64,000 bases of DNA from Escherichia coli (GTDB lineage: Bacteria > Pseudomonadota > Gammaproteobacteria > Enterobacterales > Enterobacteriaceae), in the NCBI RefSeq assembly GCF_024223415.1, contig NZ_CP100500.1; one strand, 5' to 3'. Below the pieces are notes generated by a model. That model was not told the origin of the DNA, searched no databases, and saw only the letters and a program-made list of their open reading frames with translations. Shown one piece after another: positions 12,984 through 56,259 of the stretch (position 1 is its first letter; each line of letters begins with the position of its first letter). The position numbers and the translations under genes were made by a program.

Positions 12984-12986
12984 TTC

Positions 12987-14020: not shown

Positions 14021-15205
14021 CTAAATATCTTTAATAAACAGCAAGCAAATCATCGCAATACCCAACATCCCTATCGCCAGCCAGAACAACGCATGGTAGC
14101 TCCAGATTTCAACCATAATTCCGTCAACAGAGCCGGCGATAATCCAGCCGACGCGTGAAGTATTTGCATATAACGTTGTCGCAGAGCCTATTTTTTCAGG
14201 CATCAGGTCCTGAAAATAAAGCATGCCGATACCACAGAGAATACCAAGGAAGATGGCATTTAGAATTTGCAATTCCAGCTCAACTGCCGGAGTCGTCGCC
14301 ATGAGTACGCTGGCGTAAAAACACATTCCACTCACGATAGCAATGAGCATTAATAGCCGCTTGCCAATACGTTTCATGTAATAGCCTGCGATTAACATCA
14401 TCGGAATTTCCAGACCGGCAGCGATACCAATCATTTCTCCAGCCAGTTTATCGGTTAGATGCAGTTCATCAATAATAAATAGCGGCATATTTATCATGTA
14501 GAGATTATTCGCCGCCCACATCATTGAACAGACCACAAAAAGTAGCCGCGTATCCCGCTTCCTGTGGGTGGAGGGTAAAATTTCTATGGGTTGGGTAACG
14601 ACAGGAATATTTCTTTGTATTGATGGCAAAAACAACCAGACTATCAGTCCGCAAACAACAAATGCGATGGCAGCGGTGAGATACATCACTTTAAAACTAA
14701 ATCCCATAGCCAGTTCATAAGCGAGCGGTGGCCCGATAACCCAGGCAAGCGAGATCTGAGCACGTAAAAATGTACTGAACATGACCGTCTCACGGCCTGT
14801 TCTGTCGGCGTGTTCACGGGCGAGAGCGAACATTTGCGGGTTTGCGGTAGAAGCAAAACTACTCAGAAGTACGCCCGTAGAGAGCAGAATGAAGTAGTTG
14901 CGATTCCACGCAAAAAGCGTGCAGGCCAGCACTCCAAATAAGCAACATAGCAGGATCAGTAATTTACGGTCGCCTTGTTTATCGGAGTGCCTTGCCAGAA
15001 ATTGACTGACCAGAATTCCCATAATAGCGCTACCGGTGAAGAAAAAACCTACCATTATAGGACGGGCTTTCAGTTCATCTGCGAGGAATATACTTAGGGT
15101 AGGAGTCTGAAGAGCGCCCGCAATACCCGTCAGAAAGGCGACAAGTAAAAATGCCGCGGCAGTGAGATCAAGTATTTTTGATGGAGTGGTAGCCGTTTTT
15201 TGCAT
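14021..15205 (-). CDS. setC: Sugar efflux transporter C-like MFS protein
   Basis: 394-aa MFS ORF; position next to selC att remnant. Confidence 0.85.
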   Translation of the reverse strand: MQKTATTPSKILDLTAAAFLLVAFLTGIAGALQTPTLSIFLADELKARPIMVGFFFTGSAIMGILVSQFLARHSDKQGDRKLLILLCCLFGVLACTLFAWNRNYFILLSTGVLLSSFASTANPQMFALAREHADRTGRETVMFSTFLRAQISLAWVIGPPLAYELAMGFSFKVMYLTAAIAFVVCGLIVWLFLPSIQRNIPVVTQPIEILPSTHRKRDTRLLFVVCSMMWAANNLYMINMPLFIIDELHLTDKLAGEMIGIAAGLEIPMMLIAGYYMKRIGKRLLMLIAIVSGMCFYASVLMATTPAVELELQILNAIFLGILCGIGMLYFQDLMPEKIGSATTLYANTSRVGWIIAGSVDGIMVEIWSYHALFWLAIGMLGIAMICLLFIKDI

Positions 15206-15841
15206 TCTTCTGAATCACCGGGCGACAAAATATAACTGAGTTACAAATAAGTACCAGTCGAATGAGTATTGTATTAAGAATTTTTGAGTATCGCTGATAC
15301 AACCAGAAAACAATGCTAGCGCAATATTATAGGGCCAGCAATTGAGATTATTAGCAAAAGCATGTTAAGAATTAATCACCGAATTTATATTTAATTATAG
15401 TAAGGCAATGAGCTATTTTTGATAGTAAAAATAAAACAAGTTGATTTGATATATTAAATGAACAAATTAATCTTGATGGCAGTCTGATTATTGGTGAAGT
15501 TTATAGGTCAGTTTTTTTCGCCAGCTGTTAAAGGAATAGAACAGTCGTATAAAAAAGGGTGTTCTGGAGCGTGTAAAACAACATCTTCACCTTAATGGCG
15601 ATACAGTTGGCTGAGAGTCAGCAGGGGGGCAAATCACCTGCAAATAAACACGGCGCATGCTGGCGCGAATATCGCGGATGCGTTCGAGGACAGAAGAACC
15701 GACAGGCGGATTCTTCAGTCGCTCATCGTCCATCACAAAACCTTTGATCAGGTATTCCTGAAGCCGATTGAATATTGAGCAGTAGAAAATCTCTGGATTG
15801 ACAGTATTACAAGGGGTTGGAGAATGTCAGAAGAGGCATTT

Positions 15842-15865
15842 TGGCGGAGATCACAGGAGTCGAAT
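15842..15865 (-). repeat. Partial copy of the selC (tRNA-Sec) 3' end; island-distal att repeat
   Basis: tggcggagatcacaggagtcgaat is the reverse complement of the tRNA-Sec 3' end GGTTCGACTCCTGTGATCTTCCGCCA with one deleted base; no remainder of the tRNA follows. Confidence 0.75.
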
Positions 15866-15996
15866 ATAAGTATTAATGCATTGATCTTAAATAATTTGTA
15901 TGTATTGGATAAATGAGTAACCCCCATAAGAACCCCCAAATGATTTTGCATGAAGGAATGAAGCTAAAATACATGATTGAATCAATTCTTAGTACT

Positions 15997-16842
15997 CTAT
16001 TGTGAAGGTAACATTTCCGGATAGTGTCTGGCTATAATATCATTTAGCCGATCAACCAGTTCTGGTTTCCTGAACGTGATGTGCGCGGAGCCTTTCTTAA
16101 AGTATCTGATGCTGAACATCTCATCTTCATAGCACTCTTTACCCTGAACAGACCGGATGTGATCATCCAGATGAATGGTGATGTTTTCCCGGTTGTCGGG
16201 GATCGGTTTACCGCTGAACAGGTGCAACATTCTTTCCAGATCGGCGAGTCGGTCAGCCTGTTGCCCGGTGATAAGATGAAATCCCCACCGGTCCCACCTT
16301 ACTAGGTTGTTAATGATAATTTTACTGCCAAATTTACAGGGGCAATTAGTTTTGTAATTCCAGCTCAGTCCCCTGAAGACGTTGATCACCCCTCGCTCAA
16401 ACACTTCATCTTTGTTCTGGTGCAGTTGTTTAAATGTGCTCAGAATGTTCGCTTCACTGATTTCCGGAAAATTATCGTACTCCAGTGACCGGTACCATGT
16501 ATCACGGGCCTGCGCATCCATTAATGACAGCATCCCGGAACGTTGCATCAGGTCACGCCAGATTTCGCGGTCAAGGTTGCGGGTGATGGCTTTCATTGCT
16601 GTTTCAGGTTTCTCCATGAGCCAGCATCCGCAGCGAAAATCCTGTTTCATCGCCCAGTCCCGTGCGCTTTTACCACCAATGCTTTTTGTCAGTACTGAGA
16701 TTTCAGTCAGTTGCCGGATAAGCGTTTCGGTTTGTTGCAGTGCTGCATTCCGTACCGTCACAACGTGTCGGATACTGGTGGAGCAGATAACGTCCGTATT
16801 CCCGGTGACCACTTCCGGATGGGAGATTGTGATGTTTGACAT
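15997..16842 (-). CDS. Hypothetical protein, DUF4942-like, typical of CP4-like island ends
   Basis: 281-aa ORF next to the cbtA/yeeW-like genes; family assignment from memory. Confidence 0.55.
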   Translation of the reverse strand: MSNITISHPEVVTGNTDVICSTSIRHVVTVRNAALQQTETLIRQLTEISVLTKSIGGKSARDWAMKQDFRCGCWLMEKPETAMKAITRNLDREIWRDLMQRSGMLSLMDAQARDTWYRSLEYDNFPEISEANILSTFKQLHQNKDEVFERGVINVFRGLSWNYKTNCPCKFGSKIIINNLVRWDRWGFHLITGQQADRLADLERMLHLFSGKPIPDNRENITIHLDDHIRSVQGKECYEDEMFSIRYFKKGSAHITFRKPELVDRLNDIIARHYPEMLPSQ

Positions 16843-16926
16843 TATCGGTTTCCCTTTTGGTTTATAAACGAAAACGCCAGCCGTATTCAGGCTGGCGTCA
16901 GTGGAATGAAGTCTGGTGAGTAAGGC

Positions 16927-17124
16927 TCACCGGTTCTGTTGCAGAAGCTGCAGTTGGCGCAGGGTATGGATATCCTCCCTCGCCTGTTCAATGCAGGGCA
17001 GCAGTGCTGCCGAATCCGTTTTATCCTCATCGTTGTCAAAGATAATTCCCGATTCGCAGTCGATATTGTCCTGCAGCCACGCAATCAGAATATCCAGTGC
17101 TGTTTCCGTGGTTAATGATTTCAT
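16927..17124 (-). CDS. Small acidic hypothetical protein
   Basis: Start MKSLTTETALDIL inside ORF 16927..17169; no assignable family. Confidence 0.35.
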   Translation of the reverse strand: MKSLTTETALDILIAWLQDNIDCESGIIFDNDEDKTDSAALLPCIEQAREDIHTLRQLQLLQQNR

Positions 17125-17135
17125 GTTGTTCCTGG

Positions 17136-17624
17136 TTACCAGTTGAAAGTGGGTAAACCCGGCAGGCATTCAGAGCTGGCATCCAGATGAATGAGACTGA
17201 CGCCATAACGTCGGGTAAGTGTGACAACCAGACAACGGAACGTTTTTGACAGGCCCAGGCGCTTAAGCCGCAGAACCGGGTATGACCACGCATCGGTACG
17301 TAACAGATAGCCGCTACCTGTGAAATGAATCCATTCTGATTCACCAACGTCACTGGTCTGATGCGACAGCGAGTACAGCCAGGCGTTATCCTTTTCCGTG
17401 ATATGTGCGGTACTGCAGCGTATGCCGGCAAGGGTTGCAAACGGTGGTAGTGTGCAGGTTGACTGTTGGTCGGATTCCTCCACCACGCGGAGTGAATAAC
17501 CGTTTTCAGCGACCTTGTTAATCAGTTCAGTGAGATTAACACCATCGACGTCAACGACAATTTGCCCCATGTTCAGTGCCTGCACATTAATTCTGTCGGC
17601 TTCCAGCATCAGGGAAAGTTTCAT
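17136..17624 (-). CDS. YeeW-like protein encoded downstream of the CbtA toxin gene
   Basis: 162-aa ORF whose start overlaps the cbtA stop by 4 nt; conserved position in CP4-44-like elements. Confidence 0.5.
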
Positions 17625-17995
17625 CGTTTCTCCGGATGCTTACCCAGGGTAATGTTATTTACCGTTCTGTAATTGTCGCGGGTCATCAGGCCGGTCGCCC
17701 GGCGAGCCCGGAGGATATCAATACTGTTTATTAACTGAGAGCGGGGACAAGTGCTGAATCCCGGCTGGTTGGTACGCACCAGCGCGTATTTTTCCACGAG
17801 AAAATTCACCGCATCACACAGTGAAATGCCAGCTTCAATATGCTGCTCAATCACACGTTCATCGGCGAACGGTGTGTCATTCAGTGTAAGGCCGTAATGC
17901 TGGCCCAGTAGTCGGGAGAGCAGAGTCTGCCAGATGGTGACGGGAGACGGGCAGCTCGATGCCTCCCGTACGTGTGTATCGGGTAATGTTTTCAT
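17621..17995 (-). CDS. cbtA: CbtA/YeeV/YpjF-family cytoskeleton-binding toxin
   Basis: 124-aa protein near-identical in pattern to K-12 YeeV ([32 protein letters not shown]..). Confidence 0.85.
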
Positions 17996-18084
17996 ACTGA
18001 AGGTTTTCCTGATATGCAGAGATGAAAAATGGAAAAGTGGCGTGGTGAAAGCACCAGGCCGGAGCAGAAGGTTATTCCGGTGGT

Positions 18085-18453
18085 TTACTTTTTCGTTTCG
18101 GGCGTCGGATAAACAGCCAGATAAACGTAACCACAGGAGCCGAGGGTGTCGGCTTCGCAGGTCAGCCCTTTCGCATACAGCGTGACGGTATGCTGATGTC
18201 GGGGATTCAGTTCACCGCTGGTGAGCATGAGTTCCAGTTGTTTCATCAGCAGCGGAAAGGCCTGGTCCAGATGGTATGCATCTGCGTCGCTGAAGCGGCC
18301 TCTGATACCGGCGCGGTCGGCAAGGTAATGCAGGCGGTTACCCTCCTGCACCAGACGAGCGCCAAAACAGGGCCTCACTGTGCAGGGAAGCCCCCACCAG
18401 GGGCGGTCGTGATTGTCGTCGGGATGAGTTATCCCGGAGAGTTTGTCTGACAC
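18085..18453 (-). CDS. cbeA: CbeA/YeeU/YfjZ-family antitoxin
   Basis: 122-aa protein upstream of cbtA with conserved YeeU-like sequence. Confidence 0.85.
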
Positions 18454-18615
18454 GATAAAATCCTCTCTGAAAAGTGGTTAAGAATGGTTTAATGATGACA
18501 GGTCAGCCGGCGCGCTGACCGGTTTCGGTGAAGGTGTATTCGTTGATGAGAATGGCCTCATCCACAGCGGCGTCTGAGGTCATCTGGTCGTACTCGTTTC
18601 CCGGGTGACGGAACA

Positions 18616-18837
18616 TCAGTTCAGGGTGACACTCATCAGCCGGACATACGGGCCAAAACTGTCCTTACGGCGTTCTGCAAATACAGCCAGCACACCGGGA
18701 ATATCCTGCACTTCACGACCGGTATACGCTTCAGTGCCACCATGCCAGCGGTATTTGCCGGTACAGAACGGAAAAAGACGGGATGCAGGATGCTGACGGT
18801 GAATACGCATGGCTTCACCACGGGTGATGATTTTCAT
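18616..18837 (-). CDS. DUF987 protein (YeeT/YpjJ family)
   Basis: 73-aa protein MKIITRGEAMRIH...; conserved position. Confidence 0.8.
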   Translation of the reverse strand: MKIITRGEAMRIHRQHPASRLFPFCTGKYRWHGGTEAYTGREVQDIPGVLAVFAERRKDSFGPYVRLMSVTLN

Positions 18838-18905
18838 AGTGTGATACCTCTGAAGACAGAAGATAAAAGTGAAAACAGGTGTGATGTGGTTGTGACGGTG
18901 ACGGG

Positions 18906-19382
18906 TTAAAGCAGACCGTGTTCCGCAAAGGAGAAAACCTGGCTGCCACCGATTATCAGATGGTCCGGCACCCGGATATCCACCAGGGCCAGTGCCTGTA
19001 CCAGACGTTCCGTAATAAGGCGGTCTGCCTTGCTGGGTGTGACTTCACCTGACGGGTGATTGTGTGCCAGCACCACGGCAGCGGCATTGTGATACAGGGC
19101 GCGTTTAATCACTTCCCGGGGATGGACTTCCGTGCGGTTGATGGTGCCGGTGAAGAGGGTTTCACCGGCAATCAGCTGATTCTGGTTATTCAGATACAGC
19201 ACCCGGAACTCTTCACGCTCCAGTCCCGCCATGTTCAGAATCAGCCATTCCCGTGCCGCACGGGTGGAGGTGAAGGCCACACCGGGTTCATGAAGATGGC
19301 GGTCCAGGGTTTTCAGAGCCCGCAGAATGAGACTGCGCTCGCCGGGCGTCATTTCTCCGGGCAGAAAGGAAAGCTGCTGCAT
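18906..19382 (-). CDS. RadC-like JAB-domain protein (YeeS/YfjY family)
   Basis: Start MQQLSFLPGE; HNHPSG metalloprotease-like motif. Confidence 0.85.
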   Translation of the reverse strand: MQQLSFLPGEMTPGERSLILRALKTLDRHLHEPGVAFTSTRAAREWLILNMAGLEREEFRVLYLNNQNQLIAGETLFTGTINRTEVHPREVIKRALYHNAAAVVLAHNHPSGEVTPSKADRLITERLVQALALVDIRVPDHLIIGGSQVFSFAEHGLL

Positions 19383-19397
19383 TGTCCCTGCCTCCAT

Positions 19398-19883
19398 TCA
19401 GTCGATGATGCGCATAATGGCGCTGCATTCCGGATGCTGCAGGGCGTAATCCCGCAGCCGGTAATAATGGACCGTCATGGCATAACACTCCGTACGACAG
19501 GCGTGATGACTGTACGTCATCAGACAGGCAGCAATGCCGGCGGCTTCCGGGCTCATTTCAGCGCGGTTACCGTTCATGGCATTGAACAGTACCCATGTTT
19601 CGCCATCATCGTCATCCGGTTCGGGCGCTATAAATGCGCCACCGTTGTTCAGTGTGTACAGATTCCAGATACCACCGCAGTAGTCTTCGCAAAGACGGTC
19701 CATCCAGCCGAAGATACGGGGCTCCAGGGTCACCCACTGTGGAATGAGGCAAAAATGCTGCGGCCAGAAGCTGATGCGCTGTTCATCAGGGACTATGGTG
19801 GCAACCAGCTGAGGCTGGTCATTCCCTGATGCAGCGGTTACGGAAACAGAAGATGTGGTGGAATTATGTGAAATGGTTTTCAT
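19398..19883 (-). CDS. Antirestriction protein (KlcA/ArdB-like, YfjX family)
   Basis: 162-aa protein starting MKTISHNS; family and position typical of CP4-57-like elements. Confidence 0.75.
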   Translation of the reverse strand: MKTISHNSTTSSVSVTAASGNDQPQLVATIVPDEQRISFWPQHFCLIPQWVTLEPRIFGWMDRLCEDYCGGIWNLYTLNNGGAFIAPEPDDDDGETWVLFNAMNGNRAEMSPEAAGIAACLMTYSHHACRTECYAMTVHYYRLRDYALQHPECSAIMRIID

Positions 19884-19958
19884 GAAATGACTCCTTAAAG
19901 GACAAATAAATGCGTGGTTTTCATGAAATGACTCCTTAAAGGACAAATAAATGCGTGG
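19877..19958. repeat. Two tandem copies of a 41-bp unit covering the RBS and start codon of the antirestriction gene
   Basis: catgaaatgactccttaaaggacaaataaatgcgtggtttt occurs twice head-to-tail. Confidence 0.85.
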
Positions 19959-19978
19959 TTTTCAGGGTAATGGCTGAA

Positions 19979-20797
19979 TCAGCGCAGGCTCTCCAGCAGC
20001 GTTTCCGCCATCACCCACAATGCGCGGTTGAGCTTAATGTCAGTGTCAATGCTGTGAATGGCACGGGTATGGATACGTTTTCCTTTAGCGCTGCGACCTG
20101 AAATTCCGCCTTTCAGCATATTCTCCTGAATGGTCTGATAAGCACTCCACAGGTCCTTACCGTAATCCTCCCGGCGTCGTGGCGTCAGAATGTCGGCGGT
20201 GGTGACGGGCTGATGTTCGTCACCATAACGGTAAGTCAGTGCCGCCTGTGCCAGCGCCTGGCGTGCCGGTGGCGGCAGAATCAGCGACTGCATGGCATCA
20301 CGCTTTTCCTCAATCCGGTCAAAAACCCCCACCACCTCGTAAGCCCCTTCAATAACTTTCTCCACCACATTTCCCCGGTGCGGAACACGCACTTCCCCCA
20401 GAGACTGACCACAGACGCATCCGTTCTGACAGACGAACCTGAAGTAACCCGGCAGCATCTGGTAGCTGGAGGTACCGTCATGGGAGTTGAGCAGAATGAT
20501 TTCAGGGACATGTTCTCCGTTTATCTCTCCGGCCCGCCGCAGACGCAGCATATGTTTTGTGTATCCCCGGCGGCCCGGGTCGCGCACACGGGTCTGGCAG
20601 GCGAAGAATGGCTGAAAGCCTTCCCGCTGCAGGCTTTCCAGTACGGTGATGGTGGGAATGTACGCATATCGTTTACTGCGGGAAGTATGCCGGTCTTCAC
20701 CGAAAATACTGGGAACATAGTGCATCAGTTCTTCGTGTGTCAGCGGACGGTCACGGCGTATCTGGTTCGTATAACCAAAACGACTGGCTAGTCGCAT
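19979..20797 (-). CDS. DUF932 protein (YfjQ/YafZ family)
   Basis: 272-aa protein starting MRLASRFGYTNQIRRDRPLTHEELM. Confidence 0.8.
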   Translation of the reverse strand: MRLASRFGYTNQIRRDRPLTHEELMHYVPSIFGEDRHTSRSKRYAYIPTITVLESLQREGFQPFFACQTRVRDPGRRGYTKHMLRLRRAGEINGEHVPEIILLNSHDGTSSYQMLPGYFRFVCQNGCVCGQSLGEVRVPHRGNVVEKVIEGAYEVVGVFDRIEEKRDAMQSLILPPPARQALAQAALTYRYGDEHQPVTTADILTPRRREDYGKDLWSAYQTIQENMLKGGISGRSAKGKRIHTRAIHSIDTDIKLNRALWVMAETLLESLR

Positions 20798-21208
20798 AAT
20801 TTGCTCCTTATCGGTGGTTAAGATTTACTGGTGTAATAAATGAAAAAGCCACGTCTCCCGGAGAAGACGCGGCCTGATGGGTGAAATGAATGACGTTTAT
20901 TGTCTGAGAAGACCGTCACTGGCGAGCCGCGTATTAAGCACCTTTCCGGCATCGGGTTCAGAATTCCGGCAGCGCCAGCGTCGCTGACCTTCCGTGTTGC
21001 GGATAACCCGACGGAAATGCATTCCCGGGTCATCCTGGATAAACACATTGCGGTAAGCTGTTATGACAGCAACCGCCTGCCCGTATGAGAAAGATCCTTC
21101 AGCCAGGACATACTCTGTGTAACCCGGCATATCTGTTTTCTCCTGATAAATAAAAAGCCTCTGCCACGCGTTGTGACAGAGGCTGAAGCATGAAACTGAC
21201 TTCAGGGA

Positions 21209-21664
21209 TCAGTTAACGTTTTTTCCGGAAACGGTAATCAGCAGTGGATGGTAGTCCTGGGGATTGAAAACCGATAACGGCAGACTGACACGATGGCCGT
21301 TACTTTCTTCAGTTGCTTTAATGATTTCGGTTGTGGCGACATTTTCCACGCACTCCGTTTCCAGAAATGCGTCTGTGGTTCGCGTGGCATTACTGTCACC
21401 AAAAGCTTCCGTTTCCATTTTTCTGGTCACCAGCGTCTGACCATATTTGTCTTTGAGTTGCAGAGTGATGGTGAGGGGGCCAAATCCTTCATCGTTTCCG
21501 CCATTATCCAGCCGGAACTGGTAAGCACAAATATTTCCCGGGAGCCATATCGTATCTGTATTGCGTATACTGATGTAACGTTGATCCTGTGCCCGGAGTG
21601 GGGCAGACCACGTTAACCCCAGAATGAAGGCGGTAATCATGCAGGTTTTGAACAGGTGAATCAT
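21209..21664 (-). CDS. Secreted hypothetical protein
   Basis: 151-aa ORF with N-terminal signal peptide (ITAFILGLTWSAPLRA). Confidence 0.5.
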   Translation of the reverse strand: MIHLFKTCMITAFILGLTWSAPLRAQDQRYISIRNTDTIWLPGNICAYQFRLDNGGNDEGFGPLTITLQLKDKYGQTLVTRKMETEAFGDSNATRTTDAFLETECVENVATTEIIKATEESNGHRVSLPLSVFNPQDYHPLLITVSGKNVN

Positions 21665-21739
21665 GGTATTTACCTCTCTGAGTCATGACGATGACACTGA
21701 CAAATCAGGTGATAAAGCGTAAAAGGCGCAGAATAGCCG

Positions 21740-33851: not shown

Positions 33852-35336
33852 ATGTCATTCGGTCAGCCTTGTGATGAGTTTCCCCTGAGTTCGCTGCCTC
33901 CACTCATTCGTGATGCCGTTATTGAAGCTCAGCAAATTACGCAGGCTCCCCTTGGGCTTGTGGCAGCGTCTGCCCTGGGCGCTGTTTCACTTGTCTGCCA
34001 GAATCTGATTGATGTCTGCAGACTGAATACACTGCGGGGGCCGGTCTCTCTTTTTTTCCTGACGCTTGCCGAGTCCGGAGAACGAAAAACCGCAGTGGAC
34101 AAATTATTAATGAAGCCCCTGTACCAGCAGGAGATGCAGTTATATTCCAGATACAAAAGTGAACTGGCTGTCTGGAAAAACAAGGAAGAGCTTTTAAAGG
34201 CTCAGAAAAAAGCATTGTTGTCAAAACTGAATAAAGAACTCCGCAAAGGCGCGGATGAGTCAGAAACCCTCAGACAACTGGAAGTACTTCAGAAAAACAG
34301 TGCGGAAGAACCTGTGAGGTATAAATTCATTTTTAATGATGCCACGACTGCGGCAATTAAGAATCAGCTTTGTGGTAAATGGCGTTCAGTTGGTATTATG
34401 TCAGATGAAGCCGGTATTATATTTGATGGATATACCCTGTCTGAGTTGCCTTTTATTAACAAAATGTGGGATGGCTCTGTATTGTCTGTGGACAGAAAGA
34501 ATGAACCCGAACAGATGATTGAAAATGCCAGAATGACGTTATCCCTCATGGTGCAACCCGGTCTTTTTGACCGATATATGGAGCGAAAAGGTTCTGTTGC
34601 CAGGGACAGTGGTTTTCTTGCCCGTTGTCTTATCAGTAAACCTGCAACCACGCAGGGGAAACGCTTTATTAACGGAGCTGTGATTCCGGGAGGATCATTA
34701 ACGGCATTTCATGAACGATTAATGGAACTGGCCAGAGGCAGTATTGAAAAATCCAGTGAGGATGAACGGTATTGTCTGCATTTTTCGCCTGAAGCGCAAA
34801 AAATATTTATTGAGCACTATAATGTTCTGGAGCAGGATTTATCCCCTTCCGGACCCTTAAGCCCGTTTCGGGGACATGTTTCAAAAAAAACAGAAAACAT
34901 TGCAAGAATTGCAGCGTTATTTCAGTATTTCAGCTATGGTGAAGGGAAAATCTCTGCCGATATCATGACGTCTGCTGTCGTAATAAGTTCGTGGTACACA
35001 GATGAATATAAAAAATTATTTGCGTTACCTGATGAATCTGAACTGCAGCAGAAGGACGCCGAGGAGCTGTTCGACTGGCTCATTGAGGAGTGCCGCGGAG
35101 AATGCCCGCCCCGTGTCAGGAAAAATTATATTCTCCAGTGTGGCCCGGGCCGGTTCAGAAACAGGAAAAAACTGAACGCATTGCTGAACATTCTTGAATC
35201 TCAGTTCAGGCTTTCTGTCGTGCCGGAAGGAAAAACCATGTATGTTCTGCTTCCCCAGATAGCCAGTTTAAAGTTGTCTGATGTCTCTGGTATTTTTACC
35301 TCGGGTTATCACTACAATAAGCTGAGAGCGAAGTAA
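33852..35336 (+). CDS. DUF3987 protein (YfjI family)
   Basis: About 495-aa ORF starting MSFGQPCDEFPL; family typical of CP4-57-like elements. Confidence 0.7.
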   Translation: MSFGQPCDEFPLSSLPPLIRDAVIEAQQITQAPLGLVAASALGAVSLVCQNLIDVCRLNTLRGPVSLFFLTLAESGERKTAVDKLLMKPLYQQEMQLYSRYKSELAVWKNKEELLKAQKKALLSKLNKELRKGADESETLRQLEVLQKNSAEEPVRYKFIFNDATTAAIKNQLCGKWRSVGIMSDEAGIIFDGYTLSELPFINKMWDGSVLSVDRKNEPEQMIENARMTLSLMVQPGLFDRYMERKGSVARDSGFLARCLISKPATTQGKRFINGAVIPGGSLTAFHERLMELARGSIEKSSEDERYCLHFSPEAQKIFIEHYNVLEQDLSPSGPLSPFRGHVSKKTENIARIAALFQYFSYGEGKISADIMTSAVVISSWYTDEYKKLFALPDESELQQKDAEELFDWLIEECRGECPPRVRKNYILQCGPGRFRNRKKLNALLNILESQFRLSVVPEGKTMYVLLPQIASLKLSDVSGIFTSGYHYNKLRAK

Positions 35337-35657
35337 CCGGTGAGCAGTTTTTCTCCATTATGCTTCAGACTTAGATGATTGATTATTATGGGGATTTCAT
35401 CACCGATATTCAGATGTATGAATATCGGTGATGAACTAAAGCTCAGGAGCTGCGTGGTGGTGATGAATCAACAGGCATATAACTGATACCCGCCGGTCAG
35501 AAGTTCCAGCCTGCGACTTTCCTGTCTGCGTGCCCGCAGTCCGGCGTTCAGGTGCAGCGTGTGACAGAACGCACGGAGAGCGAAACGGCAGGCAGACAGG
35601 CCGTTCAGTCAGCCCTGGCACCCTGCCCGGATACCAGCTTCCCTGAAACAACTGGCA

Positions 35658-36266
35658 TCAGGTGCGCTTATCGTCAACCGTTGTGCGGTATGCCAGGAGC
35701 ACGTACTGATCCATCAGATCCGTCAGTGCTGCGCTCTGCTTCTGACGGTTGATGATCCATTCCTCCAGCTCTTTTTCTGATTTCCGTTTCAGATTCTCCG
35801 TCCAGTCGTCAAGGCAGTTTCCGGTCATTAAATCAAGCCAGCAAAGCCAGACCAGTTTGAGGCGCAACTCCGTGCCACCAAACTGACGGAAGAGGCTGAT
35901 CAGTTTATTTGCCAGCGAACGCTGCCTCAGACGTTCACATTCAGACAGGAGAATGCCTTCCAGCATCGGATGATGAACCAGCAGATGTTCACTGGTGCAT
36001 AAATTCACTATCAGATCATCATCCAGGGGCGGCGTGGTCCGTTTGTCCGGACCATAAATCAGCCGGTGCAGACTCTGGGGTACGATGGCAATCTCCGGTT
36101 TTTCACCATTGAATGACACCCACCCGGGCGTCAGATTATGGAAGTAGTAGATATTCGGATGACACACGCCCCAGGATACGGCGTGCCGGGTGAAGCCGGT
36201 CAGCCATTTCTGGTAGCTTTCGTGGAGCAGCTCGTAACGGGTCTGATACTGTGGTTTCATTTTCAT
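35658..36266 (-). CDS. Hypothetical protein co-oriented with and downstream of the AlpA-like gene
   Basis: About 200-aa ORF starting MKMKPQYQTRYELL with a GAGGA-like RBS; no assignable family. Confidence 0.5.
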   Translation of the reverse strand: MKMKPQYQTRYELLHESYQKWLTGFTRHAVSWGVCHPNIYYFHNLTPGWVSFNGEKPEIAIVPQSLHRLIYGPDKRTTPPLDDDLIVNLCTSEHLLVHHPMLEGILLSECERLRQRSLANKLISLFRQFGGTELRLKLVWLCWLDLMTGNCLDDWTENLKRKSEKELEEWIINRQKQSAALTDLMDQYVLLAYRTTVDDKRT

Positions 36267-36346
36267 ATTCCTCACGGGGGATAACAGGCAGCAGAACGCC
36301 GCCGGCAGGCCGGAGACTGCGTCTGCTGCAGATGAACGGTTAAGAA

Positions 36347-36553
36347 TTACGGACGGGACTGTGCAATACGCGCCTGCAGCCAGGCTTCCACTTCGCTTTT
36401 CAGCCATCGGGAGCTGCGGCCCATTTTGATGGGCGCAGGAAAGTCACCATCCTTGATGAGTTTGTAAAACCACTTATCGGTCAGGCCGGTCAGTTGAGTG
36501 ATAAATGCCATGTCGACCATCTGGTCATCCATCAGTGAAACTGGGGTGATCAT
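36347..36553 (-). CDS. alpA: AlpA-family prophage transcriptional regulator
   Basis: 69-aa protein with AlpA-type HTH (FITQLTGLTDKWFYKLIKDGDFPAPIKMGRSSRWLKSEVEAWL). Confidence 0.8.
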   Translation of the reverse strand: MITPVSLMDDQMVDMAFITQLTGLTDKWFYKLIKDGDFPAPIKMGRSSRWLKSEVEAWLQARIAQSRP

Positions 36554-37875
36554 GAGAATGTTCCTCCGGATGTTGTTAAACCAGCCGGTGTGGTCATGAA
36601 AACAACGCACCACCTTCACCGGCATAACAACCGGGGAGAAACGTAAAAAATAATCGGGAATGTGACCGCCAGGAGATAAACGGGGAGGTTACGGTGGCTG
36701 AGCCGTACCGGTATGCCGGGTGGTTGTTACGAAACGATGCTTCCGCACGCGTGCGCGATAAAGAAGGGATGATTTTCGTGAGGAAGAGGGGAAAACTGGC
36801 GTTCTGATAATTGCAGAGTTATTTACGGGGCGGTTACGATGGGGCAGACCGTGTCCGGTGGGCAGGCGACAGGTATCACCGATGGGATAAGACTGTCTGA
36901 TTGGTATTATAAATATATAAGAGAGATCAAACACATGAGATCAAATACATGAGTTCATATATGTGAAATAAACACGGTGAGTGTGATCAGTGGGCATGAT
37001 GAGAACGCAGTAGCAACAGACTGCGCTATCCCTGATAGCTGGCGTATAACCCGCGTATATAAAACGTATCTGCAATGTACGTGAACAGAGTGCATTAAGC
37101 ATCCGTCTGAGCGGTAAACATATCCGACCTGGTGAGTGACAGTCTGAGAGACCGGTTAAGTGGTGGCTCGGGAGTAATGAGTTTGGGGTGGGTACCAGAA
37201 TGCCAGTCTGGCGGTATGCTGACAGTATCACGTTAATTGCAGCATAAAGTGATGAGAGGCTAATGGAAGTTAAAACCAAAGCAGTTCCGTCGTTGTTCAT
37301 CCCGGGAGACGCTGGAAAAAGTGATTTCCCACACGCGTTATAAACTTACCTCTGCGGAACTGGAAGCCTTCAACTCTGTGGTTGATCACTGGCTGGCAGA
37401 ACTGACAATGAACAAGCTTTACGATCGTGTTCCCGCTTCAGTCTGGAAATATGTCATCTGAGCGTTCGGTAATCACAACTGCATCGCGCCAGGTGTTATC
37501 CGCTTTGTGATTCTTATTGGCTCTTCTCAGGTTATTAAAAGCTGAATATGTTCCTGTTGTCGGGAACCAGGATAATACCGGGAACGTTAAGCGGTATAGC
37601 GACAACAAAGAATTCGAAATCAAAAGGGAATGGTGCCGGAGGCGTGGGCGGTAATGGGCTGATTTTCAGGTATTACCGGCTTACAGCGTGTGGTTGATAT
37701 TGAGGGGCTGTGAGTTTCACGTATTTGTCAGAAACCCAGACGAGTTTTCCTGTATGGGACGAAATAAGGCAGCGGCAATACATGGAAAAATTTAATATGG
37801 TATGAAGGAGAACCTGTCGGTTACGCTTAATATAACCGGTACACTGTCAGCTCAGGGGATACATGAACCGTTATC

Positions 37876-38076
37876 TCACCAGCTACACAGTATATACACA
37901 CTGACGCTGACAGTAGTCAGCAGGACCACAATAATCAGTGCCAGCAGTATGGTAACGATACGGTCTGTATTCCGGTAATAGCCGAAGGGGTCGACAGAAC
38001 CACAATACGGGCAACACACAGTATTATGAGTAATCGCGTTTCCACAGTCCCAGCACTTCTTTTTGCGTATCACCAT
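37876..38076 (-). CDS. Small zinc-ribbon membrane protein (hypothetical)
   Basis: 66-aa ORF with CWDCG...CCPYCG followed by one TM helix. Confidence 0.4.
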   Translation of the reverse strand: MVIRKKKCWDCGNAITHNTVCCPYCGSVDPFGYYRNTDRIVTILLALIIVVLLTTVSVSVYILCSW

Positions 38077-38281
38077 AACTCCCTCCTCACAGCCTTACCC
38101 GTAACCGGTTTTTTTACATTAAAAAAACAACGCTGAAAATTCAACCGTCAGTCCGGAGACGACCGTTCGGGTTATCTCAGAGTGCCTGAGATATTGCCTG
38201 GTTGGAGATCACTTCAGGGACTCTGCGCATTTTTTACGGCGTGGTTAATCCGTATGAACGAAACCATACGGAGATTTAACC

Positions 38282-38851
38282 ATGACCTACAAATACAACC
38301 CCTTCTGGCAGCAACGTATTCGTGAGACGGTGCGGCACGCACTGGATGTTCATCCCCGTCTGACGGCATTGCGGGGTGATCTGCGTCTCCCGGATGTACC
38401 GGCAGCAACGGACGCGGCTGTGATATCCCGCTTCATCAATGCCCTGAAAGCCCGAATCGACGCTTACCAGAAACGTAAGCATCGGGAAGGTAAACGCGTG
38501 CATTCCTCGACCCTGCATTACGCCTGGGCCCGGGAGTTCGGGGAGCTTAAAGGCAAAAAACACTATCACCTGCTGCTGCTGGTCAACCGGGATACCTGGT
38601 GTCGTGCCGGCGATTACCGCGCTCCGGGGTCACTGGCCGGAATGATTAAACAGGCGTGGTGCAGTGCCCTGGGAGTGGATGTCGGGTGCCATGCCACGCT
38701 GGTGCATTTTCCGGCCTGGCCGGCGGTGTGGCTGGAACGCGATGATGACACTGGCTTTCAGCAGGTGCTGGAACGTGCTGGCTATCTGGCGAAGGAGCAT
38801 ACCAAAGCTCGCGGCACCGGTGAGCGCAACTTTGGCTGCAGTCGTGGCTGA
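38282..38851 (+). CDS. YagK/YfjJ-family protein (inovirus Gp2-type)
   Basis: 189-aa ORF starting MTYKYNPFWQQRIRETV, typical of the family. Confidence 0.7.
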   Translation: MTYKYNPFWQQRIRETVRHALDVHPRLTALRGDLRLPDVPAATDAAVISRFINALKARIDAYQKRKHREGKRVHSSTLHYAWAREFGELKGKKHYHLLLLVNRDTWCRAGDYRAPGSLAGMIKQAWCSALGVDVGCHATLVHFPAWPAVWLERDDDTGFQQVLERAGYLAKEHTKARGTGERNFGCSRG

Positions 38852-39011
38852 GCCCGACAGACGACTTATCTGACCTTAGTGTGATGACGCGTTCACAGCG
38901 ACCACACTGATTTTCCCTTCTGAGACTGAACTGAAAACCGCTATTCACACCTGACCACGCTGCCCGTACCGGGACGGCTGTTGCCTGCGTGTCGTCTGGC
39001 GGCTGAGGAAT

Positions 39012-39401
39012 ATGACGATGTACGCAAAATCCTTTCTCGCACTTGATGGCAACGGGCGTCTGACTGGTGCCCGTACCGCACAGACTGCACCTTACGATCG
39101 CTACACTTGCCACCTTTGCGGCAGTGCACTCAGATACCACCCGCAATACGACACTGAACGTCCCTGGTTTGAACACACTGACGACGGGCTGACTAAGCAC
39201 GGTCATGAGTGCCCTTATGTCAGACCGGAACGCAGGGAGGTACGCTTGATTAAGCGTCTGCAGCAATTCGTACCGGATGCCTTACCCGTGGTGCGTAAAG
39301 CCAGCTGGCACTGCAGACAATGTCACCACGATTATTATGGGGAGCGGTACTGCACTCACTGCCATACAGGGCACTTCAGTGAGGAGGGAGTGGCTGAATG
39401 A
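39012..39401 (+). CDS. Cysteine-rich hypothetical protein A (two zinc-ribbon-like CxxC pairs plus WFEH motif)
   Basis: 129-aa ORF; clear paralog of the next ORF; motifs YTCHLCG...WFEH...WHCRQC...YCTHCHTG. Confidence 0.55.
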   Translation: MTMYAKSFLALDGNGRLTGARTAQTAPYDRYTCHLCGSALRYHPQYDTERPWFEHTDDGLTKHGHECPYVRPERREVRLIKRLQQFVPDALPVVRKASWHCRQCHHDYYGERYCTHCHTGHFSEEGVAE

Positions 39402-39823
39402 ACGGTATAAAAACGGGGCTGGGGATCACGCCGGGTGAACACATTATCAGTGCGGCCTCAGCCCTTAGCAGAAATATCAGGCATTGTTTCTGCCTTTCCT
39501 GTCGTGGTCGGTTGATTTTGCAGACAGATGCTCAGGGGGCGTGGTTTGAGCACGATTTACATGCCCTGAGCGCGCAACAGAAGGCGGCCTGCGTGGTGCT
39601 GAATCCGGAAAAGTCCCACCCTTACATTGAGGATATGGCGATGTTTCTATCGCCATTACCGGTCGTGCTGGAGTGGCATTGTGTGATGTGCGGGCAGCAT
39701 TTTCCCGGGAAAAAGTTCTGCGAAGCCTGTGGCACGGGGATCTATTCCAGAGCAACATGTACGAAGTCTGTTTACAGCTACCAGCCAGACTTGTTTCAGG
39801 ACTGCGGAGGTGCGAGTACTTAA
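39398..39823 (+). CDS. Cysteine-rich hypothetical protein B (paralog of A, translationally coupled)
   Basis: 141-aa ORF starting in the ATGA overlap with ORF A; motifs CFCLSC...WFEH...LPVV..WHCVMC...FCEACGTG. Confidence 0.55.
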   Translation: MNGIKTGLGITPGEHIISAASALSRNIRHCFCLSCRGRLILQTDAQGAWFEHDLHALSAQQKAACVVLNPEKSHPYIEDMAMFLSPLPVVLEWHCVMCGQHFPGKKFCEACGTGIYSRATCTKSVYSYQPDLFQDCGGAST

Positions 39824-42275
<2,452 letters not shown>

Positions 42276-42343
42276 GTCTGAATCCGGCCGACCCAAAATT
42301 TTCCCCCAAGCTTCTCCCGGTATCTTTTAAGAGTATTGATTAC

Positions 42344-43552
42344 ATGAACGACACCGTTTTAAACGTAATCCCGGTGCCTGTACGCACTTGGGTGGCTATA
42401 GCAGCGCTCGGTATCAGTGCATTTTCGATTGTGACCAGCGAGCTTGCGCCTGTTGGCATGCTTAGTATGCTAGCAAAGGACCTGAACCAGACTGAATCGG
42501 ACACGGACCTTGTCGTGACTGCATACGGCTGGGTTGGGGCTCTGGCAGCACTTTTGTCTGGATTGATACCAGCGAGAATTTCACGTAAGTCTTTGTTAGT
42601 GACTCTTATGGTAGTGTTTGCTTTGTCTTGTGTGGCGGCGACACAGTCATCACTCGATGACCCTATTTATGGGGGCGCGTATGACAGGCGCTTTAGCACA
42701 TGGTGCTTTCTGGGCTTTGATTGGAGCAGTGGCTTCACAGCTTGTTCCGGCTGAAAAACTAGGACTGGCCACCTCAGTTATTTTTGGCGGCGTTTCGGCT
42801 GCCAGCGTTCTGGGTGTGCCACTGTCGAGTTTTATTGCGGATATGGCCGGGTGGCGGAGTGCGTTTACGGCGATTTCTCTGCTGTCACTTGCCGCCGCCT
42901 GTGCTCTATTCTGGACGCTCCCCACACTGACGGTGCCACAACCACTGAGGCTGCGTGTTTACTACGGGATATTCAAAAACCCGGTGCTCCTTTCCCTCTA
43001 TGGTGCCACTGCCTGTATTATTTCGGCTCATTTTGCGGCATTCACTTACCTCCAACCACTACTGACGAAGGCTCAGGAAGTACCGACGGCTTCGATTTCT
43101 GGCCTACTGCTGATGTCCGGGCTCTCCGGTCTGGCCGGAAATATCATTGCCGGAAAGCTGATCGACCGTCATATCAAAGGGCTGATTTTCGCTTCACTGC
43201 TCCTGAGCGCAGGTGCGCTCGGCATACTTGGTATGAGGAGCGCTGCACCACTGCCTTTCTGGTTCACAGGCATACTGCTCGCAGTTTGGGGCGCGGGTAT
43301 CGCCATTGTATTCGTTGGGTTGCAGACAGGTTGCTCCGTAGCGCCGGGGATGCTGTACAACCGGCGTCAGCCATTTACGTTACAATTTTTAACGCAGCGA
43401 TCGGCACCGGTGCGCTTGTGGGAGGCCAGGTATTAGCCGTAAAAGGTATTCAGGGTATGGCCTTACTTGCTGCGGGCATCATTGCATGCAGCATAGCTCT
43501 GGTCGCAATGCTGAAAAGCCCCGCGAATAAGCTCAGGCCTGAAAGGTCGTGA
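42344..43552 (+). pseudogene. MFS transporter gene with at least two frameshifts
   Basis: Three overlapping ORFs (42272..42754, 42618..43436, 42851..43552) together give a 12-TM MFS. Confidence 0.7.
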
Positions 43553-43920
43553 CGAATTCAAAAACGCATTAACCGACAGTAATTAAATGAGAGGGACGTG
43601 TCAGAAGAGGCTTCCCCTTATTTTATACGTCCAGTTCGGTAAAGAGTATTAGCCCACAGGACGAGGCTTATCCGAAACTACAACTCTGAAGGATTTAGTT
43701 AATCGCTTTAGAATTTCCAACTTCCGTTCCTCGCTCACAGCAGACCTTAAGATCTAGGAGGGAGTCCGCTCAGTGCCATGGGCGGACCTTAAGCTTCAGT
43801 AATTTGATTAGCACAATCCCTATGATAAATAGACTGGCCCCCTGAATCTCCAGACAACCAGTATCACTTAAATAAGTGATAGTCTTAATACTAGTTTTTA
43901 GACTAGTCATTGGAGAACAG

Positions 43921-44286
43921 ATGATTGATGTCTTAGGGCCGGAGAAACGCAGACGGCGTACCACACAGGAAAAGATCGCAATTGTTCAGCAGAGCTTTGA
44001 ACCGGGGATGACGGTCTCCCTCGTTGCCCGGCAACATGGTGTAGCAGCCAGCCAGTTATTTCTCTGGCGTAAGCAATACCAGGAAGGAAGTCTTACTGCT
44101 GTCGCCGCCGGAGAACAGGTTGTTCCTGCCTCTGAACTTGCTGCCGCCATGAAGCAGATTAAAGAACTCCAGCGCCTGCTCGGCAAGAAAACGATGGAAA
44201 ATGAACTCCTCAAAGAAGCCGTTGAATATGGACGGGCAAAAAAGTGGATAGCGCACGCGCCCTTATTGCCCGGGGATGGGGAGTAA
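43921..44286 (+). CDS. insC: IS2 InsC (OrfA)
   Basis: Start [18 protein letters not shown], as in IS2. Confidence 0.9.
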
Positions 44287-45149
44287 GCTTAGTCAGCCGT
44301 TGTCTCCGGGTCTCACGTGCGCAACTGCATGCCATGGCCCGTCGGTCGAAGGACTGGCAGGATCGTCGGTGCAAGCGCAAGCCTGATGATACTGACGCGC
44401 TGGCCCGTATCCATACCGTTATCGGCGATCTGCCCACCTATGGTTATCGTCGGGTATGGGCACTGCTGCGCAGACAATCAGAAACTGACGACATGGCGGT
44501 GATCAATGCCAAACGCGTATACCGCATCATGCGTCAGAATGCGCTGCTGCTTGAGCGTAAACCGGAAATACCGCCATCGAAGCGGGCGCATACAGGGAAA
44601 GTGGCCGTTGGAGAAAGTAACCAGCGGTGGTGCTCTGACGGCTTCGAGTTCAGCTGTGATAACGGTGAAAAACTGCGGGTCACGTTCGCTCTGGACTGTT
44701 GCGATCGCGAGGCACTTTACTGGGCGGCCAGTAACGGTGGATATGACAGTGAAACCGTGCAGGACGTCATGCTGGGTGCCGTGGAGCGTCGTTTCGGTAA
44801 CAGCCTGCCGACATCCCCAGTTGAGTGGCTGACAGACAACGGTTCAGCCTACCGTTCTTATCAGACGCGTCAGTTCGCCAGAATGGTAGGACTGGAGCCT
44901 AAACATACGGCGGTACGTAGCCCGGAAAGCAACGGGATGGCAGAGAGCTTCGTGAAAACGATGAAGCGCGATTACATCAGCATCATGCCGAAACCCGACG
45001 GGTTAACAGCGGTAAAGAACCTTGCGGAGGCCTTCGAACATTACAACGAATGGCATCCGCATAGTGCACTGGGGTATCGTTCGCCACGGGAATATCTGCG
45101 GCGGCGAACCAGTAATGGGTTAAGTGATAAAAAGTGTATGGAAATATAG
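44244..45149 (+). CDS. insD: IS2 InsD (OrfB, DDE transposase)
   Basis: 301-aa ORF as in IS2. Confidence 0.9.
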
Positions 45150-45160
45150 GGGCCAATCCA

Positions 45161-45540
45161 ATTGCACTGTTTCGAGGCTATCCGGCGACGATAAGAACTG
45201 ACCAGGGGCCGGAGTTCACTTGCCGTGCACTGGATCAATGGGCCTTTGAGCATGGTGTTGAGTTGCGCTTAATCCAGCCGGGCAAGCCAACGCAGAACGG
45301 ATTTATTGAGAGCTTTAACGGACGATTTCGCGATGAATGTTTGAATGAGCTCTGGTTCAGCGATATCGTTCATGCCAGGAAAATTATTAATGACTGGCGG
45401 CAGGATTATAACGAATGCCGCCCGCACTCCACGCTGAATTATCAGACACTGTCTGAATTTGCAGCGGGCTGGAGAAAGGGTCATTCTGAGAATGAAGATT
45501 CCGACGTTACTAACTGAGTGTTGTATCTAATCGTGGGGGC
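45161..45540 (+). pseudogene. C-terminal fragment of an IS3-family transposase OrfB, truncated by IS2
   Basis: Frame reads ..[52 protein letters not shown]..; no 5' part or orfA present. Confidence 0.7.
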
Positions 45541-46455: not shown

Positions 46456-47451
46456 CTAGATTGACTCGCGGGGAAGCCAGGGACTCTCAACTATCACTTT
46501 ATCCCGGTGGGTGTCACCATTGATAATGTGCAGTGTACTTAAGCGCCCAATTTCATAATGCGGTAGCTGGACCGTGGATAATGGGGGTAAAAATAAGTTT
46601 CCAATGCCTACAAGATTGTCATAGCCAAGAACGGCAATATCCTGTGGGATTCTGATACCCTGCGTTAACAATGTTTGATACACCATAAATGCAATACGAT
46701 CGTTACCACAGATGACCGAATCAAATCGCGGTTTCCCCTGTTCGATATGCGCCAGCAACATCTCCGGAATATCTCGGTAGTGCTCATCGCCGAATTGCAT
46801 ATAGCAGTGCTCAAGCGTATCAGGATCGATACTGGCTTCCCTGCAGGCGCGATCAAGCCCACGACGACGACGACGCGTCGCCAGATGGTTGACGGGTAAA
46901 TGCAGGCATAGAGGGCGGCTGTATCCTGCTGCCAGCAGTGCCTGTACGGCCGTATACTGGCCATGTTCATCGTCAGGTATATAGCTGGCAACCGGCTCTC
47001 CCTTGTTCTCGCAGTTGGCCAGAACGCAAGGAAGCTCCAGTAACCGGGGAGGAATACTGACTTCACGCAGCCCCATGGTAGTAAAAATGATCCCCCCGGG
47101 TCGATGGGCGAGCAGCAGGTCGACAATATCGTCAGGATTATCATCGGTAAACATATTCACCACAAAGCTGTTCCAGCCATACGCCCGCGCGGTTTCTTCA
47201 ATAGACAGCGTGATTTCTACTGAAAAAGGAGTGGTGACCGTATCCAGCGCAAGCACACCAATCGTTTTGTTCCGGGTGCCAACACGACGAATCTGCTGGG
47301 CAGAAAGGTCTGGCACATAATTTAACTGCGTGATCGCCTCCTGCACCCGAGCCAGAGTCTCAGGCTTTACGCGTTTCGGGTCATTCAGCACCCGTGAAAC
47401 CGTCATGAGCGATACATTGGCCAGTTTGGCCACATCCTTTAAAGACGCCAT
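46456..47451 (-). CDS. fosR: LacI/GalR-family repressor of the fructooligosaccharide locus
   Basis: 331-aa ORF with N-terminal HTH and periplasmic-binding-like domain; divergent from the operon. Confidence 0.75.
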   Translation of the reverse strand: MASLKDVAKLANVSLMTVSRVLNDPKRVKPETLARVQEAITQLNYVPDLSAQQIRRVGTRNKTIGVLALDTVTTPFSVEITLSIEETARAYGWNSFVVNMFTDDNPDDIVDLLLAHRPGGIIFTTMGLREVSIPPRLLELPCVLANCENKGEPVASYIPDDEHGQYTAVQALLAAGYSRPLCLHLPVNHLATRRRRRGLDRACREASIDPDTLEHCYMQFGDEHYRDIPEMLLAHIEQGKPRFDSVICGNDRIAFMVYQTLLTQGIRIPQDIAVLGYDNLVGIGNLFLPPLSTVQLPHYEIGRLSTLHIINGDTHRDKVIVESPWLPRESI

Positions 47452-47691
47452 AGTTTTCCATTATCTGAATGCATACACCCGGTAAGGTGTTGTGAGCAAA
47501 TGCGAATGCCCTATTCTAGGCACGGACACCCAGGGTTATGCAGACCACTCTGATAAATTTGAGCTAGATCTCAACATTTCAATGTTAACGTTAACTTTTG
47601 TGATTAACATCGACAAACAAATCAAAATCGAGTGTCCCCCCAAAATGATAACGTTACCATATTAGCATATCCTTCTTACGAGATTACGTAG

Positions 47692-48930: not shown

Positions 48931-48949
48931 TGTACTGAGAATAAAGACG

Positions 48950-50383: not shown

Positions 50384-50547
50384 TTCTCCGTTCCGACCTG
50401 TTTCTTGCAGGGTGAGTTTTTATTTCTGCCAGTCTCTGGCTGGCATGTTATTGTCTGGAATAATGAGAGAGCAAAATGGATGAAAGCGTAATACCTCAAA
50501 ATTGCATTACCTCGAAAGATAAAAATATATTTGTTCCAGGAAAACAG

Positions 50548-51741: not shown

Positions 51742-51755
51742 TATTCAGGTGTAGC

Positions 51756-53249: not shown

Positions 53250-53261
53250 CGGGATATTATT

Positions 53262-54275: not shown

Positions 54276-54388
54276 ACCGTACGCTGGATAATCCATGCCA
54301 CCTGAACACGCTGAAGCGTTAGTAAAAATAGTGACCTTACCGCAGGTCACGTTTAAAAAAACAAGTTAATTATTATTAAGGAAATATC

Positions 54389-55631: not shown

Positions 55632-55943
<312 letters not shown>

Positions 55944-55983
55944 TTACTGATTTAGTGTATGATGGTGATTTTAAGGTGCTTGC

Positions 55984-56259
55984 GTGGCTTCCATTTCCAT
56001 CAGATGTCCTTCCTGCTCCGCTACTGAAGGCGTGGTGCGTAACGGCAAAAGCACTGCCGGACATCAGCGCTATCTCTGCTCTCATTGCCGTAAAACATGG
56101 CAACTACAGTTCACTTACACCGCCTCTCAGCCCGGTACGCACCAGAAAATCATTGATATGGCCATGAATGGCGTCGGATGTCGCGCCAGTGCACGCATTA
56201 TGGGCGTTGGCCTCAACACGGTTTTACGTCACTTAAAAAACTCAGGCCGCAGTCGGTAA
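55984..56259 (+). CDS. insA: IS1 InsA
   Basis: 91-aa ORF with zinc finger [15 protein letters not shown]... Confidence 0.9.

Follow-up and report, generated by a model that had tools for sequence, protein, structure and literature searches.

The 64,000-nt stretch of E. coli DNA analysed here (the window) begins with a chromosomal segment shared with K-12, running from ilvB to setC and then into the adjoining spacer. Positions 1–15864 align with K-12 as one colinear block (99.53% identity, five gaps) that ends exactly at 15864, and in K-12 this end lies 24 nt inside the selenocysteine tRNA gene selC, counted from its 3′-end. Past 15864, K-12 continues into the body of selC, whereas the window reads TATAAGTATT... 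and then enters a gene for a DUF4942 protein. The claim of an earlier note that K-12-like synteny stops at a selC-derived repeat is borne out, as the colinear block ends inside that repeat; the alignment across selC–setC that it had proposed as a check shows selC directly adjoining the flank in K-12, with the 48 kb absent. In strain 755, an intact selC sits on a flank carrying the same two SNPs as that of the window, which shows the empty-site form of the window's backbone allele.

The first core gene outside the accessory DNA is setC (14021..15205, minus strand), which is intact in the window. Its start codon ends at 15205, and the native selC–setC intergenic flank (15206..15841, the B′ side), colinear with K-12, supplies exactly the 636 nt that had been stated to separate the setC start from the repeat. 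Within this flank, and therefore outside the island, lies a RhuM-family pseudogene fragment (approximately 15602–15763, minus strand; yicT in the K-12 annotation), the translation of which contains ...YLIKGFVMDDERLKNPP...ERIRDIRAS.... The 54-aa fragment had no match in NCBIfam, and its label rests on the RefSeq annotation and the translated motif; its presence in K-12 as well suggests that a far older element once occupied selC and left this fragment behind. The possibility that the K-12 selC–setC flank is a diverged version of the arm on the integrase side is not supported as such, the local alignment score being 24 against a mean of 22 and a maximum of 32 in shuffles. What remains between the flank and the integrase arm is a 10-nt identity beside the tRNA end, TCAGAAGAGG, found at window positions 15822–15831 and in the integrase-side (attL) arm of strain F404 (locus L002, 2484–2493), where it stands in register in both, 5–6 nt beyond the tRNA 3′-end. 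At this site, the flanks of K-12 and F404 read TCAGGAGAGG. The homology of the attachment sites may extend past the tRNA.

The repeat itself (window 15842–15864, plus strand) reads TGGCGGAGATCACAGGAGTCGAA. The selC gene of K-12 (locus L003:3223-3317) ends in TTCGACTCCTGTGATCTTCCGCCA (also written GGTTCGACTCCTGTGATCTTCCGCCA), with the reverse complement TGGCGGAAGATCACAGGAGTCGAA, and the 23 bases of the repeat thus match the final 24 nt of selC in reverse complement with one A gone (GGAAG to GGAG). Thus, of the 24-nt tRNA-Sec repeat lacking one base that was originally described, the identity and the gap stand but the extent does not: the repeat is 23 nt long, as base 15865 is T in the window and C in selC and falls outside the match. 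The repeat equals positions 72–95 of the 95-nt tRNA, position 72 being the first base of the T-loop, and this core, in minus-strand orientation, spans the T-loop, the 3′-half of the T-stem, the acceptor 3′-strand, the discriminator and CCA, that is, a displaced selC 3′-end one acceptor-strand base short. The minimum-free-energy fold of selC has an 8-bp acceptor-stem and a 5-bp T-stem. For P4-family integrases, the T-loop is a described crossover sublocation in the tRNA gene. The inner 16 nt (15849–15864), GATCACAGGAGTCGAA, are the reverse complement of TTCGACTCCTGTGATC, which is given as the 16-bp direct repeat of selC islands, AGI-3 included, in the account of these repeats in PMC6174562.

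A further motif is found 56 nt inward of the core, on the arm that belongs to the island: paired ACCCCC motifs, ACCCCCATAAGAACCCCCAAA, occupy 15920..15940. The same account gives AGI-3 a second, imperfect end repeat, TTTGGGGGTACTTTAGGGGGT / TTTGGGGGTTCTTATGGGGGT (PMC6174562), and both published end repeats, TTCGACTCCTGTGATC and TTTGGGGGTTCTTATGGGGGT, are present distally in the window as reverse complements, at 15849–15864 and 15920–15940, respectively. In F404, the proximal copies lie in the interval from the integrase gene to selC; there, the counterpart of ACCCCCATAAGAACCCCCAAA is ACCCCCTAAAGTACCCCCAAA. The occurrence of paired ACCCCC motifs on both arms plausibly marks putative arm-type binding sites of the integrase.

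With a match of 23 nt, chance similarity or a sequencing artefact in ordinary intergenic DNA has to be considered, and the short length alone speaks for it. On the other hand, even a search permitting up to three mismatches places the 23-mer at a single site in the window, its count in 100 dinucleotide-preserving shuffles was 0, it coincides exactly with the position of selC in K-12, and hundreds of independent genomes carry the identical junction, so that an accidental origin is vanishingly improbable. A scan of a species-representative genome collection with the end-repeat pattern GATCACAGGAGTCGAATAT gave 0 matches, and the looser pattern GATCACAGGAGTCGAAD gave 37 matches in that collection, every one of them in an unrelated phylum, as chance 17-mers would. 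Judged from sequence comparison, positions 15842–15864 very probably represent the distal attachment site (attR) of an AGI-3-type island of about 50 kb inserted at the 3′-end of selC.

The DNA after the repeat is accessory only, and the CP4-like genes, IS elements, fos locus and LacI/MFS/GH31 genes that had been listed for it were all found; the gene labels used here are annotation transferred from F404 and BEN2908. The island begins distally with a CP4-like module (15997..26098, minus strand) that includes the 3′-part of agn43 and corresponds to the AGI-3 "module 5" described in PMC4807369. Its distal genes (15997–24262) encode DUF4942, DUF957, DUF5983, CbtA toxin, YeeU antitoxin, DUF987, RadC, antirestriction, DUF932, DUF905, IrmA and YeeR-like proteins. 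A 41-bp tandem duplication at approximately 19874–19955, in the start region of the antirestriction gene, is found in neither F404 nor BEN2908. The agn43 gene for the Ag43 autotransporter (24377..31379, minus strand) is a pseudogene, split by an insertion and carrying a frameshift near 26100. The insertion (27203..31085; 3,883 bp), located 292 nt from the agn43 start, is made up of two elements: first a 2,442-bp member of the IS66 family, which has 13-nt terminal inverted repeats and carries its TnpA/B/C genes on the minus strand, and then a 1,441-bp member of the IS3 family. No obvious target-site duplication accompanies the 3,883-bp insertion in agn43, and this IS66–IS3 configuration in agn43 was absent from all 5,426 complete E. 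coli genomes searched.

A central CP4-like module (31749..39823) follows, encoding a YeeP-like GTPase, YfjI, a hypothetical protein, an AlpA/excisionase-like helix-turn-helix (HTH) protein, Hha, an inovirus-Gp2-family protein and two zinc-ribbon proteins. The HTH protein (36347–36553, minus strand; 68 aa) shows a weak match to the excisionase domain TIGR01764 (E = 8e-5, below the cut-off) and, about 27 kb from the integrase end, is a candidate for a recombination directionality factor encoded in the middle of the island. An IS-rich junction (39929..45517) comes next, with IS100, an aldo/keto reductase fragment, an MFS gene, ISEc27 and an IS3-type integrase-core fragment. The istB gene of IS100 is intact; frameshifted pseudogenes at 40708–41729 and 42344–43552 represent its istA gene and the neighbouring MFS gene, likewise in F404 and BEN2908. 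The fos locus for use of short-chain fructooligosaccharides (46456..55351) comprises fosR, a LacI-family gene on the minus strand, and, on the plus strand, fosT (MFS), GH32, OmpG-like, GH32, OmpG-like and fructokinase genes in this order, the names being assigned by order against the published operon (PMC3325963). An IS5 fragment and IS1 (55779..56681) separate the fos locus from a second carbohydrate module (57279..62308), which contains a GH31 glycosidase and an MFS transporter on the minus strand and a LacI-family regulator on the plus strand, and a gene for a TPR-repeat protein (62706..63749, minus strand) is the last island gene before the integrase. The IS elements of the island include IS66, IS3, IS100, ISEc27 and IS1.

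It had been claimed that the intact selC and an integrase are not in the window and that the island therefore runs past 64000. Both parts agree with the results: ARAGORN found no tRNA in the window, tblastn with the integrase of the selC island gave nothing significant against it (best E = 0.49), and in the two closest complete genomes the integrase and then the intact selC are located beyond the equivalent of position 64000. In F404 (NZ_OY754364.1), this equivalent is position 92856, the integrase gene (93016–94200) starts 160 bp past it, and the intact tRNA-Sec gene (94500–94594) follows 300 bp after the integrase gene, about 1.64 kb beyond the same point; the final 1,358 bases of the window are 100% identical to F404. 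The integrase, WP_001218910.1, is a P4-type tyrosine integrase, identical in F404 and BEN2908 and in the same arrangement with selC, and it comprises Arm-DNA-bind_3 (PF13356), Phage_int_M and Phage_integrase (PF00589) domains; its nearest integrases in a phage collection are about 50% identical. The intact selC next to the integrase in the closest genomes carries the same 16-nt core. On the basis of these relatives, the selC-proximal end of the window's island would also consist of an integrase and an intact selC, and the island would measure about 49.8 kb between the outer edges of the two repeat copies.

According to the mechanism proposed here, a circular element equipped with a copy of the 3′-end of selC would have been recombined into the gene by its own integrase, and integration would have rebuilt a complete tRNA gene beside the integrase while the old 3′-end was displaced to the far border. 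These recombination steps are based on established knowledge of P4-family elements that integrate into tRNA genes. The island would be a mosaic separated by IS elements, in which an integrase with the TPR protein, GH31, fos, and CP4-like modules with Ag43 and toxin-antitoxin genes adjoin one another, and it was probably assembled by IS-mediated accretion.

The components of this mosaic differ widely in frequency. A 1,195-nt junction query (flank, repeat and DUF4942 end) is at least 80% covered in 680 of 5,426 complete E. coli genomes, and a 76-nt query centred on the repeat has matches in 732 of them; the exact 76-nt junction of the window occurs in none of the 5,426. The fos locus has matches in 52 of the same 5,426 genomes (at least 80% covered in 37), and 18 of its 53 places are on plasmids, which indicates that it also moves independently of the selC island. 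The 24-kb half on the integrase side (window 40001–64000) is at least 80% covered in one place in five genomes, with approximately 15 more at 76–79%. Thus, the distal CP4-like end is common to many selC islands and the AGI-3 cargo is rare (680 versus 52 versus five genomes). The same disparity would be expected if the repeat marked the end of an older CP4-like element only, and the fos and GH31 modules together with the integrase formed a second, tandemly integrated island. Such an arrangement would also account for the AlpA-like HTH protein and YfjI, which usually neighbour the integrase in CP4-type elements and here lie mid-island at 33.8–36.6 kb, and for IS100 cutting off the CP4-like module. 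However, no second selC-derived repeat was found in the window with three mismatches permitted, so that no internal hybrid attachment site survives; every module border is an IS element, which fits IS-mediated accretion inside one island; and AGI-3 is treated as a single island of five modules, with the same two end repeats, in the descriptions given in PMC6174562 and PMC4807369. Two islands in tandem are considered unlikely.

The missing base in the repeat was followed through a comparison of 20 junctions (the window, F404, BEN2908, K-12 and 16 others). The repeat is one base short in the window, F404, E100341, 32-4, PSJ-12, AB56, ST38, O157:H7 (LEE), MEI7BO1-21, EC-7215, UTAK-3 and YZ3E2001. 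A perfect 24-nt copy is present in EC332 and a GGAGG form in FT130, while 3 nt are lost in E. coli B and 4 nt in G5, Ecol_745 and BEN2908. The variation in repeat length is confined to the acceptor-strand GGAAG (window 15842–15848), as the loss of 1, 3 or 4 nt or an A-to-G change, and no variation occurs across the compared junctions in the 13 nt up to GATCACAGGAGT. The 16-nt core is identical except in MEI7BO1-21, EC-7215, UTAK-3 and YZ3E2001, in which the homology to selC ends 2–5 nt earlier. The form lacking one base is common to islands with at least five different island-side arms, the LEE end of O157:H7 included; it is therefore not explained by simple decay that occurred independently once each island had integrated.

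Since the gap lies in the acceptor strand, excision by a crossover in the 16-nt core would turn selC into a gene of 94 nt, with a bulge in an acceptor-stem of 7 bp; the predicted minimum free energy of this 94-nt form is less favorable by 4.7 kcal/mol. An 8-bp acceptor-stem is needed for recognition by SelB, so that loss of the island should be costly: with a bulged 7-bp stem in place of 8 bp, selenoprotein synthesis would be predicted to suffer. Two genomes, HH45 (NZ_CP116411.1; L060, 2501–2602) and EC16 (NZ_CP189734.1; L061, 2501–2602), contain an empty selC site with a 94-nt tRNA-Sec gene that is 100% identical to the predicted excision product and lacks the same base as the window's repeat; the other top matches listed for the 94-nt query have a normal selC. 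The state of HH45 and EC16 fits excision scars left by a crossover in the 16-nt core, which would also agree with the deletion of PAI I in strain 536, reportedly damaging to selC. Alternatively, the 94-nt genes could be indel errors of assembly, or they could be a natural allele that islands "repair" on integration.

It is tempting to combine these observations into a broader proposal, which is put forward tentatively and with more doubt than confidence: the one-base-short repeat would be a conserved feature of selC islands and not a product of random decay, the selC damaged by every precise excision would "anchor" the island in its host, the gapped end would be handed from one island to another whenever a second element integrated in tandem and the older one was then excised, and HH45 and EC16 would be the scars of such losses. 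A different origin of the gap, likewise possible but held with little confidence, would place it in the attP of the element itself, with strand exchange occurring 3′ of the gap, in or beyond CCGCCA, in which case excision would restore a normal selC. This origin would account for the same one-base-short repeat standing beside at least five divergent arms and at the LEE end of O157:H7 with its different outer flank, and the in-register identity TCAGAAGAGG, 5–6 nt past the tRNA end, is compatible with homology extending beyond the tRNA. By contrast, the same arm is also joined to other variants (perfect in EC332, GGAGG in FT130, 3 nt lost in B, 4 nt lost in G5 and BEN2908), as would be expected from mutation of an unselected copy; HH45 and EC16 carry the deletion inside selC, as expected from a crossover 5′ of the gap; and both the T-loop crossover of P4-family integrases and the selC damage reported on PAI I deletion in strain 536 argue against a gap supplied by attP. 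The wider interest of the window lies in this shared one-base gap, which could make loss of the island costly through a damaged selenocysteine tRNA.

AGI-3 (GenBank AY857617) was defined in BEN2908, an avian ExPEC strain in which the island is inserted at selC, as in the window. It is described as a 49.6-kb selC island with genes for sugar transport and metabolism in PMC2704930, the fos locus is placed on it in PMC3325963, and the agn43/yeeR/irmA region constitutes its module 5 in the account of PMC4807369. The resemblance to AGI-3 that had been suggested in the earlier note is supported: of the 48,159 nt of island that the window contains (15842–64000), 43,224 (90%) are colinear with the selC island of BEN2908 at 99.69% identity, including the fos, LacI/MFS/GH31 and Ag43/CP4-like modules. 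In both islands the modules follow the order of integrase (seen in the window's relatives), TPR protein, LacI/MFS/GH31, IS1, fos, ISEc27, IS100 and a CP4-like module with Ag43, IrmA and toxin-antitoxin genes that ends in DUF4942. Both end repeats described for AGI-3 in PMC6174562, the 16-nt one and the second one with GGGGGT, are likewise those of the window. The fos locus (window 46456–55351) lies in blocks that are 99.63–99.93% identical to BEN2908, with the same gene order, and its identity to other genomes reaches 100%; the LacI/MFS/GH31 module (57279–62308) is colinear with BEN2908 4006631–4011660; and the content of module 5 (agn43, yeeR, irmA and CP4-like genes) is present at 15997–32660, with agn43 disrupted.

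Several differences separate the two islands and their surroundings. BEN2908 lacks setC and most of the selC–setC spacer, whereas setC is intact in the window. In their place, BEN2908 contains approximately 1.06 kb with a gene for a 122-aa hypothetical protein (L005, 1854–3110; BEN2908 4051854–4053110), and a related layout, in which the RhuM pseudogene is longer, is seen in HH45; the replacement in BEN2908 and HH45 looks like an alternative backbone allele. The repeat of BEN2908 is 4 nt short, compared with 1 nt in the window; its agn43 is truncated by an IS3-family element different from that of the window; and, at the site equivalent to window 43666, BEN2908 contains an additional IS66-family remnant of 2.7 kb. 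Conversely, the 3,883-bp IS66–IS3 insertion and the 41-bp tandem duplication are present in the window and not in BEN2908. The island and its attachment site at selC are already known from avian pathogenic E. coli, and the window contains the attR of a member of this known family. What is delimited is a known mobile island for the use of prebiotic fructooligosaccharides and other sugars in E. coli; published work ties these traits to colonisation of the gut and to avian virulence. The window adds an island variant not described before, with an intact setC and an agn43 inactivated by IS elements, and no new kind of biology.

The closest complete genome, F404, has an island 99.3–100% identical to that of the window and the same setC-containing flank and one-base-short repeat. 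By contrast with the window, its agn43 is intact and free of the IS66–IS3 insertion, and one more copy of IS3 is inserted at the point that corresponds to window 62645. Among other selC islands, PAI I of the UPEC strain 536, the LEE of EHEC/EPEC, SHI-2, the Tia PAI and GI-selC17584/1 share the selC site and the end repeat (PMC7545054, PMC6174562), and the LEE end of O157:H7 has, as in the window, an identical one-base-short repeat and a DUF4942 gene. The cargo of these other selC islands is different, comprising haemolysin and fimbriae, type III secretion, aerobactin or Tia, and their island-side arm sequences diverge from that of the window. The P4 family includes the satellite phage P4 at leuX, the retronphage phiR73 at selC, and CP4-57, CP4-44 and CP4-6 of K-12. 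The integrase of the window's relatives shares the Arm-DNA-bind_3, central and catalytic architecture of this family, and the repeat of the window beginning at the T-loop of the tRNA is a second likeness. In these respects, the island would also resemble P4 and phiR73 themselves. With the cryptic prophages of K-12, it has a CP4-like gene set in common (YfjI, AlpA-like, YeeP/R/S/T/U/V-like and Ag43 genes). Unlike the phages of the P4 family, the window's island is devoid of phage structural or replication genes.
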